DNA from: a virus | Taxonomy: Duplodnaviria > Heunggongvirae > Uroviricota > Caudoviricetes | Length of the DNA: 35,565 nucleotides | Virus record (IMG/VR): IMGVR_UViG_2541047908_000011 | Coordinates: 1 to 35,565 of that record | Direction: 5' to 3' (one strand) | The notes under the pieces: generated by a model | What the model was told of the DNA's origin: nothing | What the model saw: the letters and a program-made list of their open reading frames with translations, nothing else | Databases searched by the model: none | Part shown: positions 16,001 to 34,674 of the stretch, in pieces | Layout: the number at the start of each line of letters is the position of its first letter | How positions within the stretch are numbered: position 1 is the first letter of the stretch | Program-made: the position numbers and the translations under genes

Positions 16001-16421
16001 GGAACTTCGTTCTCCAGCGATTAAAACGTTTCTCTCTCGGGGATAACATGTATTGCATTCAGTCCCGCCGCCACAGCGTGCTGATTATGTTCATTGACAA
16101 GCTGCATTGTTTCATCAAGCAATTCACGACAGCGATTTGCATTCGTTTCGATGCTCAGCACCAGTGAATGACCCCCACACAACCGCCCATCCAATAAAAA
16201 TGGAGAGTCAGCAGAAACAATTTCCGATTTTATGGGGTCAGTTCAACGGAAGGGCTGCTGTAATGCTGTGGACAATACTCCTTTTGTCGCTTACTGGTTG
16301 AATATCCTGGTTTTTATGCGCTTTATCCATTGTTAAAATACAACCTCAGCCCTCCAGTGATCGGACACTGTGTGAACAATGAATAAGAGCCTTGGCTGAC
16401 GGCTCCGCAAAAGGAATGACA

Positions 16422-16631
16422 ATGACAAGCTTTAATATAAATTTAAATGTAACAACAAAGGTTGAAACCATTTCTGACGTAGCTTTAGAAATTTCCCGTT
16501 TAAAAGTTACGATTGGAATATTATTGGCTAAACTACCTCCAGAACAGCGTGATTCATTCATTGCAGATCTAAAAGGCGTCGGGCTTAATGAAGAGGCCAG
16601 CTTATATAGTAATTTCAACCCAAAGATATAA
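16422..16631 (+). CDS. Small moron protein, unknown function (69 aa)
   Basis: Plus-strand ORF in an AT-rich island, opposite to all neighbouring phage genes. AAGGA RBS 7 nt before ATG 16422; own terminator downstream. Confidence 0.5.
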   Translation: MTSFNINLNVTTKVETISDVALEISRLKVTIGILLAKLPPEQRDSFIADLKGVGLNEEASLYSNFNPKI

Positions 16632-16655
16632 TCTGAATCCATCGTTTACAGGAGC

Positions 16656-16685
16656 GGGGAGGGAGCAACCTCCCCCCTTTTCTTT
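16656..16685 (+). terminator. Rho-independent terminator of the moron gene
   Basis: GGGGAGG-gagcaa-CCTCCCC followed by CTTTTCTTT on the plus strand. Confidence 0.6.
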
Positions 16686-16864
16686 ATCTGGTGTATGTAA
16701 TATTTCCTTTTAAGTAAAACGCTCCCGTATTATCAACTGCGCCCTCAGGTTTTTTATTGAGAATTTTTAATAATTTTGACTTCATAGCAATATTAAAAAT
16801 CTTTGGGAAAAGAAACATATTTCCTCCTGAATAAATATGCGAGGATGAATTGAGTTCACTTTAT

Positions 16865-17050
16865 CTAACCTCGCTGCATACACTGCCGGATGCCATCAAT
16901 CAGTTGGCAGGCCTGAGAAGCAGCGTCAAAAAACTGGCGTGCCTTATCCAGGCTAACGCATCCCGCCAATAAAAAAGGCACCAGTATCGCTACCAGTGCC
17001 CATTTCGCCGCCGTTCGCGGCATTCTGTGTGTCCAGTGTTTTCTGCTCAT
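16865..17050 (-). CDS. Small lipoprotein (lipobox LLAGC) downstream of endolysin; possible o-spanin-like or lysis-associated lipoprotein
   Basis: 61-aa ORF with signal peptide and LLAGC lipobox. AGGTG RBS upstream of ATG 17050. Mature part is short and not Pro-rich, so spanin identity is uncertain. Confidence 0.5.
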   Translation of the reverse strand: MSRKHWTHRMPRTAAKWALVAILVPFLLAGCVSLDKARQFFDAASQACQLIDGIRQCMQRG

Positions 17051-17449: not shown

Positions 17450-17719
17450 TCAACAATGGAAAATTTTTGTGACGTTCCCGCGCGCGCGTATCACCAGCAC
17501 GCAGAACAGCAGATTAAAAAACACTTCCAGCCAGCCCGTTGCTAACGGGCGACCACACAGATAGCTGAGGGGCGCAAAGGCATACAACAGCATCAGCAGC
17601 CAGGCCAGCCATGACATCAATGGTTTGTGTCTGGAGTCACGACGACGATAAAAAAAGAGCGTCAGCACGATAACCGTGCATAACGCCACATTCAGCAATC
17701 CGGGAAGGTTACTTAACAT
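17450..17719 (-). CDS. Small three-TM membrane protein in the lysis cassette (possible second holin / antiholin)
   Basis: Start at MLSNLPGLLNV...; three hydrophobic segments. Located between holin and endolysin, with overlapping or adjacent coding boundaries. Confidence 0.45.
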   Translation of the reverse strand: MLSNLPGLLNVALCTVIVLTLFFYRRRDSRHKPLMSWLAWLLMLLYAFAPLSYLCGRPLATGWLEVFFNLLFCVLVIRARGNVTKIFHC

Positions 17720-18101
17720 TGCCGCCTCCTCCGCCCCGCAGGCGGGAGAACAGACCGGACACCAGTGATGCAATATCCTGCTGGTGGATGAACGAGAGAA
17801 TCTTCACCGACACCACTGACACCAGCACTGCACACAGTGCGTCGACAGGCGCACCGTCAAACTCTGTATGCTTTACCAGCCAGGATGCCAGAACCTCTGC
17901 ACCCAGCACACCGATAATAAACGACACAAGAAAATGCGCCGCCACACGCCAGGCTGAAAGCGCCTGCGGCATTGTTGCCACAAACAACGCTCCCGCAAAC
18001 GCACCAAACACAATCCCGAAATCCGTTCCGGTAAACAGCCCGAATACCGTCGCCCCACCGAGCGCCGCAGCCGTGCCGGAACCGGATAAGGGTTCAGACA
18101 T
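17709..18101 (-). CDS. Putative holin (Gly-rich multi-TM membrane protein)
   Basis: Start at MSEPLSGSG... (ATG 18101) with AGGAGA RBS. Several Gly/Ala-rich hydrophobic helices. First gene of the lysis cassette. Confidence 0.55.
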   Translation of the reverse strand: MSEPLSGSGTAAALGGATVFGLFTGTDFGIVFGAFAGALFVATMPQALSAWRVAAHFLVSFIIGVLGAEVLASWLVKHTEFDGAPVDALCAVLVSVVSVKILSFIHQQDIASLVSGLFSRLRGGGGGNVK

Positions 18102-18118
18102 ACTTTTTTCTCCTGTAA

Positions 18119-18150
18119 ATAAAAAAGGGCCACCAGCGGCCCGTAAAAAA
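18119..18150 (-). terminator. Terminator-like hairpin (GGGCC-N6-GGCCC flanked by A/T runs) between the cargo cassette and the holin
   Basis: Plus strand reads AAAAAAGGGCCACCAGCGGCCCGTAAAAAA. On the minus strand the hairpin is followed by a U-run, then the holin RBS. Confidence 0.5.
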
Positions 18151-18392
18151 CACCCCGTCAAAGACACCCGCAGATGCCTTTTGTGTGGTGTTATCTGATG
18201 CGATGTACGCCGGACGTGGCGCGGATATGAAAAAGGCCCGCCGTAGCGAGCCATAAAGAAACAAAATTCTGAATAAAAAAACCGCCTAGTACGGCGGATA
18301 AAATGATCAAAAGAACCCGTTATTCGTTATAATAAATAAAAAACCATCAACATGGCGACTCGACTCAAGAAACGAATTTACTAACTTAAATG

Positions 18393-18902
18393 TTATTTGC
18401 GTTTATTGACAGGTAATATAGAATTAGCAGCATCTTTCTCTCTCTCTTGGAACGAGTTATGTCTTTTAACCATATCAGGACCAATGAGACTATAAATTAC
18501 TGTCAACAGTTGCCATAAAGTTAAAAAAACCAAAATGGCATATGACGCGCCCCTAAAAATGTCCTTGTGATCTATAAAAAACGGTATCTGTTTTACTAAT
18601 GGCGCAACAACGCCAATAATTAAAACTGATGCTAAAATAGCAGTAGAATGTACAATTGGTGTAAATAACCTTGTAATCCCACTGCCATTAGATTCACTCG
18701 CTGAACTGCCACCTCTAAATGATTTTTTTAATCGTTCAGGATAGATTATCGCAAACCAAGCTCCCACAACTGCAAAGATAATGGATGCTGTAGTTCGCAG
18801 GGCCTCATAAAGAGGCCACTGGGATGAGAAGGGAACATTCTTCCCAAAATAGGCAGAAAAAATCAGAACGACCATAAGAAAAATTCCACCTAAGATTTTC
18901 AT
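18393..18902 (-). CDS. Cargo gene B: 169-aa integral membrane protein (about four TM helices), unknown function
   Basis: AT-rich ORF. Hydrophobic segments at about residues 5-22, 38-57, 85-106 and 120-141. Its ATG directly abuts the stop of cargo gene A (GGA ATG TAG ATG AAA). Confidence 0.7.
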   Translation of the reverse strand: MKILGGIFLMVVLIFSAYFGKNVPFSSQWPLYEALRTTASIIFAVVGAWFAIIYPERLKKSFRGGSSASESNGSGITRLFTPIVHSTAILASVLIIGVVAPLVKQIPFFIDHKDIFRGASYAILVFLTLWQLLTVIYSLIGPDMVKRHNSFQEREKDAANSILPVNKRK

Positions 18903-19943
18903 CTACATTCCCGCCTCGCGTAATATGAGCTCCCTTTTGCCTACAAGTTCAGAAAGAAGAGATTCCGAGGACACAAACTCGGCGTCCTGTCGCTCCAAAT
19001 TCAAGTGGAATTTGGTTCGTGCTAATGAACGACTGAGCCAATATGTCGTTGGATCTCCTTTAAATACAAAACCATAATCACAAGAGTTTGTATCGCTATG
19101 TTTATTCCAATCATCAATCATCCCCTCGATGTCATCAATATCAACATTCGGAGAAAGTTCATATCTAATTTTTGTTGAGGTATTTGCAGTTTGTGGATGG
19201 CTAATATTCATATTAATCAATAGTTTTTGCCACAGGCTAAACTCGTCAGGTTTTGACACATCAAGTTCAACAACCTTTTCAATTTTAGAAACAATATTAG
19301 CATTCTGCCTAATAACTTCATGTTTACCAGGATTTCTTACTAAACCAGCTACGAACTGTGGATAGTGTTTTTTCTTTGGCAGCACATCATCTGTTGGGTT
19401 AATTTTATAGCCCTTGATAACCACCTCATGCGTGCCATCTTCCTTCTCCACACTTTCCGCCACAACGTGGCTTGATGACTGTTTTAAAAAATGATAGAGA
19501 TAGCATTGCATCGCCTTCTGTCCCGTCAAAGCATGGTTAAACTTGATGCTAGCCACTAAATCCATGGATGGAATAAACCAAAAGTAAGTAGCAAAACCAG
19601 GAATACTTCCCTTCTGGATTGAATTAAGTATTACTGTTGGGTCCGTACCAAATTCTGTATCTTCCTGAACCGATGGAACACTTTGATCTGTAGAAGGAAC
19701 CTCATTCCAGAGCAACAAAACCACATTGTCACCAGCACGTTTCATATCCAGAAGATAAGCAGGTAAAACCTCATCATTTGCTTCATATGTCTTTGTCTGT
19801 TTGAGTTTTTTCCCTTCTGCCCATAAAGCAAGATCTGTGAGCAACTCGTCACAACCACCAAATGCAGGGCTTACAACACCGTAACGGTAGTAACCACATT
19901 TTTGAATTTTATAGAACGTAATCGTTACAGTTTCAGAAACCAT
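18903..19943 (-). CDS. Cargo gene A: 346-aa soluble protein of unknown function, translationally coupled to the membrane partner
   Basis: Long AT-rich ORF with no TM segments, no Walker motif and no phage-structural signature that I can recognise. Occupies the Q-to-holin interval. Confidence 0.7.
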   Translation of the reverse strand: MVSETVTITFYKIQKCGYYRYGVVSPAFGGCDELLTDLALWAEGKKLKQTKTYEANDEVLPAYLLDMKRAGDNVVLLLWNEVPSTDQSVPSVQEDTEFGTDPTVILNSIQKGSIPGFATYFWFIPSMDLVASIKFNHALTGQKAMQCYLYHFLKQSSSHVVAESVEKEDGTHEVVIKGYKINPTDDVLPKKKHYPQFVAGLVRNPGKHEVIRQNANIVSKIEKVVELDVSKPDEFSLWQKLLINMNISHPQTANTSTKIRYELSPNVDIDDIEGMIDDWNKHSDTNSCDYGFVFKGDPTTYWLSRSLARTKFHLNLERQDAEFVSSESLLSELVGKRELILREAGM

Positions 19944-20104
19944 AAACTCTTATCCAAATGAAGTAGGGAAGAGTCTAATTTAATACCAATTCATTTAAAG
20001 TGGTTACTGGTTATTTGATCATATTGATAGTGTACAAACATACAGTATCATATCCACATCCTGCATCAAAGCAGGAATCACCTATTGTTAGATACCATAC
20101 ATAC

Positions 20105-20223
20105 TGTTTTTACGATCAACAAAAGCCCACTCGGAGGCGGGCTGTAAAAATTCCTCTAACGTCAGGCATAAAACGCCCATCGTTAGGGCGAATTTAACAC
20201 AGATTCGGGAAAAATCAACGATA
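20105..20223 (-). promoter_or_regulatory. Late promoter / leader region (pR'-like with qut-like leader and tR'-like hairpins)
   Basis: Just downstream of the Q-like stop: TTGATT, 15-16 nt spacer, TTAAAT, then two hairpin-plus-U-run elements (about 20174-20190 and 20120-20143). Matches the lambdoid arrangement by position. Coordinates approximate. Confidence 0.4.
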
Positions 20224-21045
20224 CTATCGCGTTACCCTCTTTAACTGCCGCTCCGCCCATGCCTCTTCAATGTCAAACCGAACCACCAACGTATCGTAAA
20301 AGCGTTTCACTGATTTTTTCCACGTATCAAGCGTGATAGCACTCGTCACTTTGCGTATGGCATTAAATGCCTCCGTTGATGGTAGTCTTTCATAGCCACG
20401 ACCACCACAACGCTGGCAGTCTCTGATAACAGGCATACCACGTTTTACCGACTCTTCACGATGAATGGCGACACCACGCCCACGGCAATCCTTACAGGCG
20501 GTGGAAACCTCACCCTTTCCGCCACACTCCGGACACGCAACTTTTACCACCTCCCTGACTTTTTTCCATTCTTCCCAGTAAGACGGATACACACCTTTCG
20601 TACACTTTGCCCATACCGGCGGCTTACCATCCGGATACTGGACCTTGTTTGTAAAAACTATGCTTTCAATAAATTTTTCCCCATAGCAACAAGGGCACTG
20701 CTTTTTACTCGCTGCGCTGCGGGCATAATCCTCAAAAGCGTACGAAGCCATAATGCGCATCACTACCGGTTTTATTTCTGCCGGAAGTTTTCTCAACGCC
20801 GCCACACGATCGCACCGACTGAGTGCATAATCTGCCAGTAATTCTGTTGCCCGCGCCCTGTCATTCATACTGATGCCCATTTTCCCCAGGAACGCAGAAA
20901 AACCCATCTCAGCCCGATTCTGTGTCATGCCCTGCGCGGCCATCACATCAGTGATACTCAGCGCATCTTTTGACGTTGAGGCCGATGCATCGGTCAGGCC
21001 AGGGGATTTTGGGGAGTAGTATTTCGGTAAATCTTCCAGTTTCAT
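20224..21045 (-). CDS. Antitermination protein Q-like (zinc-finger containing)
   Basis: 273-aa ORF with Cys clusters (CPECGGKG...CKDCRGRG...CQRCGGRG). Position is canonical: after RusA, immediately upstream of the late promoter and lysis genes. Confidence 0.6.
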   Translation of the reverse strand: MKLEDLPKYYSPKSPGLTDASASTSKDALSITDVMAAQGMTQNRAEMGFSAFLGKMGISMNDRARATELLADYALSRCDRVAALRKLPAEIKPVVMRIMASYAFEDYARSAASKKQCPCCYGEKFIESIVFTNKVQYPDGKPPVWAKCTKGVYPSYWEEWKKVREVVKVACPECGGKGEVSTACKDCRGRGVAIHREESVKRGMPVIRDCQRCGGRGYERLPSTEAFNAIRKVTSAITLDTWKKSVKRFYDTLVVRFDIEEAWAERQLKRVTR

Positions 21046-22910: not shown

Positions 22911-23066
22911 TTACTCCTCAGGTTCGTAAGCTGTGAAGACAGCGACCTCCGTCTGGCCGGTTCGGATTCGTACCTCGCAGAGGTCTTTCCTCGTTACCAG
23001 TGCCGTCACTATGACGGTTAAACAGATGACGATCAGGGCGATTAACATCGCCTTTTGCTGCTTCAT
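22911..23066 (-). CDS. hokD: Hok/Gef-family type I toxin (HokD/RelF-like)
   Basis: 51-aa product MKQQKAMLIALIVICLTVIVTALVTRKDLCEVRIRTGQTEVAVFTAYEPEE: single TM helix plus conserved RK.LCE..R.....EVAAF-type tail. The in-frame upstream extension to 23123 may correspond to mok. Confidence 0.8.
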   Translation of the reverse strand: MKQQKAMLIALIVICLTVIVTALVTRKDLCEVRIRTGQTEVAVFTAYEPEE

Positions 23067-23303
23067 AGCCTGCTTCTCCTTGCCTTTCGGCGCGTAAGAG
23101 GCTAACCTAGATTTGCCGTTCATAGATTGAGCCTCAGATTAATGTTAAGCGTCTTGCCGGACGCGTAATGTTAACTGGGGCTTTTCTCTATCTGCCTTTC
23201 AGTGTTCATGCCTGAGACAGATAGCCTCAAGCACCCGCAGCCATTCTACTTAACTCACGTCACCTCGCCAATATGAAATCAATCAGAAAGGTGATCCATA
23301 AAA

Positions 23304-27114: not shown

Positions 27115-27540
27115 TTAGTGCATCACCACAGCATTCCCTGCCGGGCCGCCGCGATTCATCTGGTCATACAAAACAACCGCTGACGCAACAAAATCATCGA
27201 CATCCTTCACCAGCCGATCCCTCCGTTCGACGATCTCACGGTAATATTCAGAACTGTGGCTGCGCATACGGGCCACCAGCAAAGGTGGCATTGCCTTTTC
27301 GATCGCTGGTAACAACGCCTGAATTTTTTCAACTGCATCAGGGGTGTCTTTCTCTACCCAGCGGAAAATTTTCTGGGTATTGCGAGCCAGGGCTTCCGGA
27401 TGGCTGTCGTCATACAGTTCCGGGAACGTCATTCCCAGCTCGAAATAAGTCCGGGCTATTTCAGCTGCTGGAACTTTCTCACCGTCTGGATACGCCCAGG
27501 CATTCATTGCCATGCGGATGTGTTCATGCTTGATTTTCAT
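27115..27540 (-). CDS. YdaT-like (CII-like) early regulatory protein
   Basis: 141-aa ORF, MKIKHEHIRMAMNAWAYPDGEK..., between the cro-like gene and the O-like gene. Resembles Rac prophage YdaT as I remember it. Confidence 0.55.
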   Translation of the reverse strand: MKIKHEHIRMAMNAWAYPDGEKVPAAEIARTYFELGMTFPELYDDSHPEALARNTQKIFRWVEKDTPDAVEKIQALLPAIEKAMPPLLVARMRSHSSEYYREIVERRDRLVKDVDDFVASAVVLYDQMNRGGPAGNAVVMH

Positions 27541-27905: not shown

Positions 27906-28307
27906 ATGATGAACGCCCTAGAAGTATCTATGTACAGAATCAGCAAGCTTCTTCAGGAAACTGGATGGAGCCAGGCTGAGCTTGCCCGTAGAATTGGTGT
28001 GACACAACAAACTGTTCAACAATGGGTCAGCGGTAAGGCTACACCTAAAGCCTCAAGTTTGGATAAACTGGTTGAGGTTACAGGGCATCCATTGCATTGG
28101 TTTTTATTGCCTCCTGAAGAGGGGGAGCAAATTTTCACCCCTGACACGATGAAAATTGGTCCTCGTCAACGCGAACTGCTCCAGGCTTTTAGTGCGTTTC
28201 CAGAGGAAGACCAAGAAAAAATGCTTCAAGAAATCAAAGACAAGAAAAAATCAATGGAAGAAACCATTGCCCGGTGGTTGGCGGCACAAAAAAGCCGCCG
28301 GGCGTGA
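27906..28307 (+). CDS. Prophage repressor-like HTH (XRE-family) regulator, PaaR-like; first gene of a three-gene operon with a ParE-type TA pair
   Basis: 133-aa ORF with HTH (WSQAELARRIGVTQQTVQQWVSG) and no S24 peptidase domain. Divergent from the cro-like gene. Confidence 0.65.
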   Translation: MMNALEVSMYRISKLLQETGWSQAELARRIGVTQQTVQQWVSGKATPKASSLDKLVEVTGHPLHWFLLPPEEGEQIFTPDTMKIGPRQRELLQAFSAFPEEDQEKMLQEIKDKKKSMEETIARWLAAQKSRRA

Positions 28308-29738: not shown

Positions 29739-30305
29739 TAGCTAACCAACGAAGCTAAGGTTGGTAATTAAGGAGTTCTCCACGGGTGAGGTGGAGTGCG
29801 TGCGCCGGACACGGGTGAACATCCAGCACAGACAGTTTACTGAAAGGATATTTCCCTGAAAAGTCAGACCATAACGCGAAAGCGCACGGCGAGGTAGCTG
29901 GTTCATAGATAGCCTGTCGTTAAATTTTCGTCGACCGTGCGCTTCCGGTTGTGGCACTCCGCGAAATGGCGCGGCGGTAAGTATGGCGGGGTTATTCCTT
30001 CCCCGTTGAGGACACCGGGTTGTCAGGTTGACCATACGCTTAAGTGACAACCCCGCTGCAACGCCCTCTGTTATCAATTTTCTGGTGACGTTTGGCGGTA
30101 TCAGTTTTACTCCGTGACTGCTCTGCCGCCCTTTTTAAAGTGAATTTTGTGATGTGGTGAATGCGGCTGAGCGCACGCGGAACAGTTAAAACCAAAAACA
30201 GTGTTATGGGTGGATTCTCTGTATCCGGCGTTAATTGTTAACTGGTTAACGTCACCTGGAGGCACCAGGCACCGCATCACAAAATTCATTGTTGAGGACG
30301 CGATA

Positions 30306-33303: not shown

Positions 33304-33507
33304 ATGAGCAGCTTATTTTTAACCGAAGATGAATTGCTAATATTAACGGGCTGCAAATATGCAAGCCACCAGCGAAAATGGTTAATGGAAAACGGGCTTC
33401 CGTTCTATACCAATCGTAGTGGCAAACCGATTGTCAGCCGGGATCTATTTACCTGCAATAAAACTTTACCACCACGCGAGGTAGAGCCGAATTTTGGTGC
33501 GATCTGA
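33304..33507 (+). CDS. Excisionase-like protein
   Basis: 67-aa ORF immediately upstream of int, with its stop overlapping the int start. Confidence 0.6.
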   Translation: MSSLFLTEDELLILTGCKYASHQRKWLMENGLPFYTNRSGKPIVSRDLFTCNKTLPPREVEPNFGAI

Positions 33508-34532
33508 TGGGAAGACGAAGGAAAAATCCTGAACACGAAAAATTACCTCCAAATGTATACCCAAATAAATATAGTTATGTATGGAAACCAACATCCAGAG
33601 AATCTGTCACACTAACCGCCATCAAGGATGGTTTAGCTGCTTTATGGAAAAAGTATGAGGAAACTGTAAATAATCGCGATCGTGCAATGACATTCGGTCG
33701 CTTGTGGGAAAAATTCCTCGCCAGCGCCTATTACAGTGACCTTAGTCCAAGAACACAAAAAGATTATCTGCAACATCAAAAAAAGTTGCTTGCCGTATTC
33801 GGTAAGGTACCAGCGGATTCCATAAAACCAGAACACATCCGTCGATACATGGACAAAAGAGGGGAGCAGAGTAAAACGCAAGCCAACCATGAAAAAAGCA
33901 GTATGTCCCGTGTTTACAGTTGGGGGTATGAGCGAGGGTACGTGAAGGCTAACCCATGTGCAGGTGTAAGTAAATTCAAGGCCAAAAACCGCGAACGATA
34001 TGTAACCGACAAAGAATACCAGGCAGTATTAAGCGTTGCACCTCTTCCTGTTTTTATCGCAATGGAAATTGCCTATCTGTGTGCAGCGAGGGTTTCCGAT
34101 GTGTTATCGCTGAAATGGGAACAGATTGGAAACGACGGGATATTCATCCAGCAAGGGAAAACCGGAAAAAAACAGATAAAAGCATGGAGTCCACGATTAC
34201 AGGCAGCGATCGAAAAAGCAAAACAGTTACCAAAATCTGCCTATGTGATCAGCAATCAATACGGCAACCGATATATGTACAAAGGCTTTAACGAAATGTG
34301 GGTAGATGCAAGAAATCGTGCTGGAAAAATTTCAGGTATTTTAACCGACTTCACCTTTCATGATCTGAAGGCGAAAGGAATTTCAGACTATGAAGGAAGC
34401 AGCCGGGATAAGCAACTTTTCTCTGGTCACAAAACCGAAGGGCAAGTGCTAATCTATGACAGGAAGGTTAAAGTTTCACCAACACTTGATGTCCCGTTAC
34501 CTGAAAATATTCCAAGAAAATATTCCAAGTAA
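33507..34532 (+). CDS. int: Tyrosine integrase (lambda Int family)
   Basis: 341-aa ORF with a C-terminal catalytic region (FHDLKA...GH...LIYDRK) consistent with the R-H-R-Y active site. Adjacent to the tRNA 3' end. Confidence 0.9.
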   Translation: MGRRRKNPEHEKLPPNVYPNKYSYVWKPTSRESVTLTAIKDGLAALWKKYEETVNNRDRAMTFGRLWEKFLASAYYSDLSPRTQKDYLQHQKKLLAVFGKVPADSIKPEHIRRYMDKRGEQSKTQANHEKSSMSRVYSWGYERGYVKANPCAGVSKFKAKNRERYVTDKEYQAVLSVAPLPVFIAMEIAYLCAARVSDVLSLKWEQIGNDGIFIQQGKTGKKQIKAWSPRLQAAIEKAKQLPKSAYVISNQYGNRYMYKGFNEMWVDARNRAGKISGILTDFTFHDLKAKGISDYEGSSRDKQLFSGHKTEGQVLIYDRKVKVSPTLDVPLPENIPRKYSK

Positions 34533-34584
34533 TTCCAAGTGTGATTTTTGTCACTGACTTAATGATGTGTAAGTGATTGAATTT

Positions 34585-34674
34585 TGGCGGAGAGAGGGGG
34601 ATTTGAACCCCCGGTGGAGTTGCCCCCACTCCGGTTTTCGAGACCGGTCCGTTCAGCCGCTCCGGCATCTCTCC
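34585..34674 (-). tRNA. serU: tRNA-Ser (anticodon CGA)
   Basis: Minus strand reads GGAGAGATGCCGGAGCGGCTGAACGGACCGGTCTCGAAAACCGGAGTGGGGGCAACTCCACCGGGGGTTCAAATCCCCCTCTCTCCGCCA: 90 nt with long variable arm and CCA end; anticodon loop CU-CGA-AA. Confidence 0.9.

Follow-up and report, generated by a model that had tools for sequence, protein, structure and literature searches.

Rex was the first abortive-infection system to be described. In lambda, the gene order is cI-rexA-rexB, with the rex genes expressed together with the repressor in the lysogen, and the system shuts out T4 rII mutants by depolarizing the membrane; RexA stabilizes the lytic state independently of RexB and biases the CI-Cro switch, and RexB inhibits ClpXP and ClpAP. 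A counterpart, RexABpp (PP_5643/PP_5644 of P. putida prophage P1), has been validated experimentally, and when its A-type protein is overexpressed, the membrane partner becomes active instead of being neutralized; the paper makes no mention of PADLOC or of the PDC series (Rosendahl et al. 2026). The latter comprises 145 "phage defence candidates" taken from genes embedded in BREX, DISARM and type I RM loci by guilt-by-embedding (Payne et al., bioRxiv 10.1101/2024.01.29.577857). One of them, PDC-M18, is equated in the Domainator paper (PMC11754643) with system 4 of the P4-satellite hotspot, which had been annotated as "RexA + hypothetical" via HHpred (Rousset et al. 2022). The corresponding construct, pFR81 ("RexA + 4TM" from E. 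coli IAI75), was cloned with its native promoter and appears only in the table of additional tested systems, not among the seven reported active; the panel consisted of lambda, T4, P1, 186cIts, CLB_P2, LF82_P8, AL505_P2 and T7, and one PARIS system in the same study required induced expression for activity (Rousset et al. 2022). We consider this negative result weak evidence, because it concerns eight phages, among them wild-type T4, which carries rII, and the native promoter only. No phenotype has been reported in the literature for any PDC-M18 member.

The locus studied here lies in a 35,565-nucleotide stretch of DNA, referred to below as the window, which represents a Rac/Qin-like lambdoid prophage of E. 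coli with a sok RNA, a DicF RNA, a RecE-like exonuclease and an integrase beside tRNA-Ser. The features of the locus, all of them on the minus strand, are as follows.

20224 to 21045, minus strand: Q antiterminator (Pfam Antiterm, 4.3e-52; phrog_127), context
20191 to 20218, minus strand: pR'-like late promoter, TTGATT-16 nt-TAAATT, directly after Q, read by eye
20174 to 20190, minus strand: first of the terminator-like hairpins, immediately past the pR'-like promoter
20124 to 20143, minus strand: hairpin of a tR'-like intrinsic terminator, bordering the insert on its upstream side
18903 to 19943, minus strand: gene A, encoding a soluble, acidic protein of 346 aa (pI 5.45), PDC-M18A
18393 to 18902, minus strand: gene B, encoding a basic four-transmembrane (TM) inner-membrane protein of 169 aa (pI 10.05), PDC-M18B
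18282 to 18297, minus strand: hairpin resembling an intrinsic terminator, with a T-run, past the end of B
17450 to 18254, minus strand: two holin genes, Phage_holin_8 and Phage_holin_3_7 (Pfam/PHROGs), context

An earlier note, made by reading the sequence, had described an AT-rich cassette of two coupled genes at 18393-19943, and this description held up well. The listing of open reading frames (ORFs) gave two abutting minus-strand ORFs at exactly these coordinates, and the junction reads GGA ATG TAG ATG AAA, so that the stop codon of A abuts the start codon of B. The GC content across A-B was 0.33-0.45, compared to 0.50-0.58 in the flanks, and the pair forms the lowest-GC stretch within the 35.5-kb window. 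On the strength of 70 (A) and 355 (B) homologue clusters at 90% identity, we regard both as genuine genes. Protein B has four hydrophobic segments (residues 1-23, 34-55, 78-111 and 118-142), in agreement with the four long helices of its AlphaFold model (pLDDT 72) and with the approximately four TM helices that had been read by eye; its polar residues E33, R36, R57, R117 and Q131, described as intramembrane, are highly conserved.

Both proteins matched PDC-M18 models of PADLOC-DB over nearly their full length, A with PDC-M18A (PDLC04496, 4.6e-197; PDLC04494, 1.3e-138 over residues 1-343) and B with PDC-M18B (PDLC04500, 3.4e-75 over residues 2-167), and the presence of an A model with an adjacent B model on the same strand assigns the pair to PDC-M18. 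The cassette is thus a further member of a catalogued candidate family of Rex type, and the novelty that had been proposed for it falls away. Searches of A and B against Pfam and NCBIfam returned nothing significant and PHROGs gave only families of unknown function. The pFR81 proteins matched the same PADLOC models (2e-34 and 3e-16) and aligned with the window's proteins over nearly their full length, at 21% identity for A (E 4e-13) and 25% for B (E 3e-8). The P4 system resembles the window's pair in gene order, sizes and the four-TM partner, and differs in location, lying between psu and int, whereas the window's pair is in a lambdoid late operon.

The relation to lambda RexAB was then assessed in sequence and in structure. 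The resemblance to RexA/RexB, which the note had offered as purely architectural, holds for the four-TM partner and the A-then-B order and extends to the fold of A; it does not extend to sequence homology, to a relation of B to RexB or to a cI-linked position. When the predicted model of A was compared with known structures, its fold was closest to the RexA crystal structure 8TWQ, followed by RdgC. At the sequence level, BLASTP and single-sequence hhalign of A against lambda RexA gave nothing, as did the A-family profile against PDB sequences; A had no match to the RexA models Pfam PF15969 and PADLOC RexA at E≤0.1 and E≤1, respectively, on which lambda RexA itself, as a control, scored 1e-97 and 9e-110. 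Foldseek of the A model against the PDB gave no match at E≤0.001, and a further hhalign alignment of A with RexA was weak (E 0.012, probability 3.5%, C-terminal 112 residues). We interpret A as having the RexA/RdgC fold and as probably descended from the same ancestor.

For B, neither BLASTP nor single-sequence hhalign found RexB, no Pfam (PF15968) or PADLOC RexB match was obtained, the RexB-family and B-family profiles aligned with a probability of 0.6%, and Foldseek of the B model against BFVD yielded nothing significant. An uncharacterized Mycobacterium phage Sbash protein, at rank 14 with E 0.86 to the B model, was too weak for use. We read B as analogous to RexB in topology and position; a small four-TM inner-membrane partner directly downstream of A is a feature shared with lambda RexAB. 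The two systems thus agree in having a soluble protein followed by a four-TM protein of roughly 150 aa, in being prophage-borne, and in that some A homologues directly follow a CI-like repressor. They differ in several respects: their sequences show no significant similarity, A exceeds RexA by 67 residues, no relation of B to RexB can be detected, and the window's copy lies outside the immunity region, without a P_RM-type promoter, in the late operon after Q. Judged by the predicted structure, PDC-M18 is a distant structural cousin of lambda RexA/RexB, and the Rex analogy is better founded than a sequence-only reading could show.

RexABpp belongs to another sequence family. RexApp and RexBpp matched only PDC-M53 (8e-157 and 3e-72; IMG/VR contig L102, 573-2134), by which PDC-M53 becomes a validated system, whereas A and B had no match to the PDC-M53A/B models and matched PDC-M18 only. 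The RexBpp sequence was recovered from IMG/VR via a primer-derived sequence; screening the collected B homologues for the residues mutated in the published work had not revealed it. Between RexApp and A, hhalign gave E 0.045 over 78 N-terminal residues only, and RexBpp and B were unrelated by profile. Kiwa, to which the cassette had also been likened, combines a four-TM protein with a soluble protein, but in the reverse gene order, and neither A nor B matched Pfam DUF4868 or the PADLOC models KwaA/KwaB; the pair is not a member of that system.

The limits of the insert were drawn from homology with other E. coli prophages. The Q-RusA module matched more than 3,000 E. coli genomes, with homology ending at window positions 20121-20138, and homology on the lysis side ended at about 18252; the insert therefore spans approximately 18253-20123, and this mobile unit of about 1.87 kb exceeds the two-gene interval first reported. 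It starts just past the tR'-like hairpin (20143-20124) and ends past its own terminator-like hairpin (18297-18282), which is probably the terminator of the cassette. Upstream lie Q, RusA and a DUF968 gene, and downstream the two holins and an M15 endolysin, confirming the placement between a Q-like antiterminator and a holin. The pR'-like promoter was below the threshold of the consensus scan and is proposed by analogy with lambda pR'. In the 290 nt from B to the likely holin start, three terminator-like hairpins were seen (18297-18282, 18252-18235 and 18142-18127). The Phage_holin_8 ORF (17709-18254, 181 aa) is probably over-extended, with its true start at M52: its Pfam and PHROG matches begin at residue 52, and the Serratia homologue has 125 aa.

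Among 5,426 complete E. coli genomes, 33 carried the cassette at an identity of at least 99% and a 34th at 95-99%. Ten of the carriers share the window's lysis genes, while in others, for instance strain F5505-C1, the lysis module downstream is of the EssD/lysozyme type. One of the 34 copies is split by an IS3-family element (CP61_Sichuan, NZ_CP053730.1, 2835539-2838600). In a related prophage with the same lysis genes, four tRNA genes occupy the slot. Cargo such as stx and tRNA genes is likewise inserted between tR' and the holin, and the window's cargo differs from these in being a Rex-type pair with a putative SOS-box promoter of its own. Shiga-toxin-type cargo was considered and rejected, as the Pfam and PADLOC searches did not support it. 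Apart from the LexA box described below, the window's cassette is an ordinary moron in a well-known variable slot.

Several further observations concern the surrounding prophage. The sok antitoxin RNA (23061-23236, minus strand; 110.6 bits, Rfam) implies a hok/sok type I toxin-antitoxin locus, and the DicF RNA (30080-30131, plus strand; 76.7 bits, Rfam) is, together with sok, typical of Qin/Rac-like cryptic prophages. The integrase (33507-34532) adjoins tRNA-Ser(cga) (34585-34674), and this region, 33507-34674, is probably the attachment end of the prophage. Between the lysis genes and the HNH/terminase region there is a second AT-rich island (16050-16900, GC 0.37-0.42), which may be another moron; a plus-strand ORF within it (16392-16631, 79 aa, phrog_6806, unknown function) runs opposite to the late operon. 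The candidate prophage repressor (27906-28307, plus strand) is a 133-aa HTH protein with PHROG transcriptional-regulator/repressor matches, among which there was no peptidase family; positions 27115-27540 hold a CII-like gene. Should the repressor be incapable of self-cleavage, induction may depend on a LexA-controlled antirepressor.

To describe the region upstream of A, the E. coli sequence was aligned with those of ten other Enterobacterales loci, whose proteins share 49-83% identity and whose intergenic DNA is otherwise diverged. The following elements were located in the window.

20064 to 20069, minus strand: -35-like hexamer TTGATG, 16 nt upstream of TACTGT, placed from the alignment
20028 to 20047, minus strand: palindrome TACTGTATGTTTGTACACTA, resembling a LexA box but reading CAC where the core has CAG
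20005 to 20024, minus strand: second, degenerate SOS-box-like element ATATGATCAAATAACCAGTA, 6.9 bits
19976 to 19985, minus strand: TATTAAATTA, a block almost invariant in the upstream alignments, about 35 nt ahead of the ATG

The alignment showed a conserved CTGT-N8-ACAG palindrome about 100 nt before the ATG of A, followed in most loci by a second box about 20 nt further downstream and then by the TATTAAATTA block, which is possibly a second -10 or a 5'-UTR element. The 5' end of the first box, TACTGT (20042-20047), would form the -10 of a conserved promoter, and a TTGnnn motif stands 16-17 nt before it in most aligned rows, a layout commonly seen where a LexA box covers a -10. We scored the sites with a position weight matrix (PWM) that is approximate and was built from 22 E. 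coli SOS boxes (training sites, 12.6-27.1 bits). All 11 other Enterobacterales loci scored 20.5-27.6 bits at -98 to -107, and the position of the second box (-77 to -81) scored 10.5-18.8 bits in 8 of 11 relatives. By this approximate matrix, the window's site CTGTATGTTTGTACAC scored 17.9 bits, within the training range and the top score in 35.5 kb, with one core mismatch where the relatives have perfect boxes at the same place. Among the loci retrieved, perfect or near-perfect boxes were 12 times as dense upstream of A as in the background and were concentrated in Enterobacterales; by PWM, the loci of Chromobacterium, Halomonas, Achromobacter and Vibrio had none. An Enterobacterales subclade of PDC-M18 with LexA boxes is not reported in the literature consulted on PDC-M18 and the P4 system.

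Upstream of A, the consensus scan gave no minus-strand sigma-70 promoter, and the promoter of A is proposed because of its conservation across species. We infer from this conservation that the Enterobacterales module carries its own SOS-repressed promoter; for the window's own copy, LexA control is uncertain owing to the CAC-for-CAG core mismatch. By analogy with lambda, the window's copy could additionally be read from pR' under Q. On the plus strand, at 20024-20051, stands the strongest sigma-70-like match of the region (TTGATA-16 nt-TATCAT, 10/12), which shares sequence with the LexA-like palindrome and is directed back at Q. This match may mark a divergent or antisense promoter, or it may arise simply because the palindrome is AT-rich.

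PDC-M18 proved to be widespread. A profile search of A against 1.84 billion representatives retrieved 763 clusters at 50% identity, all of about 340 aa, and a scan of one genome per species found relatives in 86 species, mostly Gamma- and Betaproteobacteria, with the remainder in Desulfobacterota, Campylobacterota, Bacteroidota, cyanobacteria and spirochaetes. Of 80 loci, 79 had a B homologue immediately behind A on the same strand, most often overlapping it by 4 nt, and the lone exception was a contig end; the pair is therefore established in other genome contexts across several phyla. The two proteins co-diverge (Spearman 0.66), and B was the more conserved in 62 of 73 pairs, as would suit a sensor that varies and an effector under constraint. 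The Pfam families most often seen in 290 flanking ORFs included ResIII, HSDR_N, N6_Mtase, Methylase_S, MmeI, NERD and AAA_21, and also phage integrases, holins and SLT. The cassette had no megablast match in 50,697 phage records; tblastn against phage records gave six, in Pseudomonas and Burkholderia phages, four of them spanning most of A.

The position of the pair varied among these genomes. In Providencia, the order is Q, A, B, holin, lysozyme; in Serratia, a different Q family (Phage_antitermQ) is followed by A, B and the lysis genes. Together with E. coli, these loci confirm that the pair recurs upstream of lysis genes in lambdoid prophages. A-B also stands immediately before the lysis genes in a Mu-like prophage of Chromobacterium and in Pseudomonas phage Ps59, where it is on the strand of the repressor. 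The pair was found in the nin region in Edwardsiella, after the primase in Pectobacterium and Symbiopectobacterium, in tail regions in Yersinia and Citrobacter, and alone among chromosomal genes in Vibrio. A Halomonas locus (L009, 4297-13206) encodes a CI-like S24 repressor, A, B, GmrSD_N, a HEPN protein and a Vsr/cytosine methylase pair (Vsr/Dcm), bracketed by two HicAB pairs. This is the cI-rexA-rexB order of lambda, within a compact defense cluster of a prophage-like element; the cI-adjacent position, which the window lacks, is thus present in the Halomonas homologue and approximately so in phage Ps59. As an autonomous module, A-B inserts at many positions, among which the head of the late/lysis operon is recurrent.

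The recurrence next to lysis genes could point to a role in the prophage's own development, in which an SOS- and Q-driven RexA-like DNA-binding protein favors lytic commitment, as lambda RexA biases the CI-Cro switch, and the membrane partner tunes host energetics, proteolysis or lysis timing. The RexB-independent action of RexA and the protease inhibition by RexB fit such a role, each of the 12 Enterobacterales copies examined belongs to a prophage and has a LexA box, and the lysis-proximal position is repeated in E. coli with two different lysis modules, in Providencia and Serratia, and in the transposable phages of Chromobacterium and Pseudomonas (Ps59). This possibility is kept alive because SOS or late timing is unusual for the protection of a lysogen. 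Nevertheless, many members lie outside recognizable prophages (on the Vibrio chromosome, beside restriction and defense genes, in the P4 satellite hotspot), and the insertion point shifts between the tail region, the nin region and a site after the primase, as expected of an autonomous moron rather than of lysis or switch circuitry. We consider a developmental role unlikely.

Less likely still is an SOS-induced membrane toxin or addiction module in the manner of TisB or HokE, with B as the toxin and A as its regulator or antidote, serving prophage stability or dormancy after damage without any anti-phage role. B is small and basic, with four TM helices and conserved intramembrane polar residues, the putative LexA-box control of the cassette resembles that of known SOS-regulated membrane toxins, and the same prophage already carries hok/sok. 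A, however, is a large upstream protein (346 aa) with a DNA-clamp-like RexA/RdgC fold and not an antitoxin fold, the SOS boxes are confined to the Enterobacterales clade, and the A-type protein of RexABpp activates its membrane partner, so that we give this explanation little credence. That the cassette is inert hitch-hiking cargo, functionless in this E. coli prophage, is the least credible explanation, since its partly decayed SOS box, the IS3 insertion in one genome and the small number of carriers are opposed by two intact ORFs maintained at an identity of at least 99% in 33 genomes upstream of two different lysis modules, and by length, motifs and gene order that are conserved across several phyla.

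The reading we favor, and hold to be probable, is that the cassette is a mobile moron encoding a Rex-type two-component phage-exclusion or abortive-infection module of PDC-M18, in view of the fold of A, its invariant coupling to B, the defense and prophage contexts, and the way in which lambda RexAB and RexABpp behave. If A works as lambda RexA and RexApp do, it would be a dimeric DNA-binding sensor of the RexA/RdgC type that senses a phage-derived nucleoprotein cue and then activates, presumably through A-B interaction, the translationally coupled four-TM protein. B, in turn, would act as a small oligomeric membrane protein that compromises, and is predicted to depolarize, the inner membrane and arrests the growth of the infected cell, which would cause the competing phage to fail. 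The module would have its own LexA-overlapped promoter and its own terminator and also lie downstream of pR'/tR'; expected to be transcribed upon LexA cleavage in the SOS response and again by Q-antiterminated late transcription, it is predicted to act mainly in the damaged or induced cell.

Several points count against a phage-exclusion role: pFR81 had no reported activity on any phage of its panel, the RexA models and Foldseek gave A no match and hhalign only a weak one, B resembled neither RexB nor RexBpp in profile and fold searches, a LexA-repressed, late-operon position is odd for protecting an uninduced lysogen, and the window's SOS box, scored with an approximate matrix, has a core mismatch. 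A narrower proposal addresses the timing, and we put it forward tentatively, as possible but doubtful: the Enterobacterales PDC-M18 pair may be a LexA-gated Rex-type module that is switched on only during SOS or induction, boosted by Q in the window, and that either shields the induced cell from superinfecting or co-induced rivals or locks in lytic development via a RexA/RdgC-like clamp. Among the described Rex-type systems consulted, none is reported with SOS-controlled timing of action.

This analysis contributes a structural link between PDC-M18A and RexA, a distinction between PDC-M18 and the newly validated PDC-M53/RexABpp, the invariant pairing of A and B across several phyla, and the conserved LexA box. 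The last of these could explain the negative native-promoter test if the P4 version shares such control, and it suggests a condition for revealing activity, namely a lexA(Def) host or mitomycin C. PDC-M18 is a large family (763 clusters) spread across phyla and has no reported phenotype. Lambda RexAB, the actinophage systems, RexABpp (PDC-M53) and PDC-M18, although unrelated in sequence, appear to share a protein of RexA/RdgC fold with a four-TM partner.
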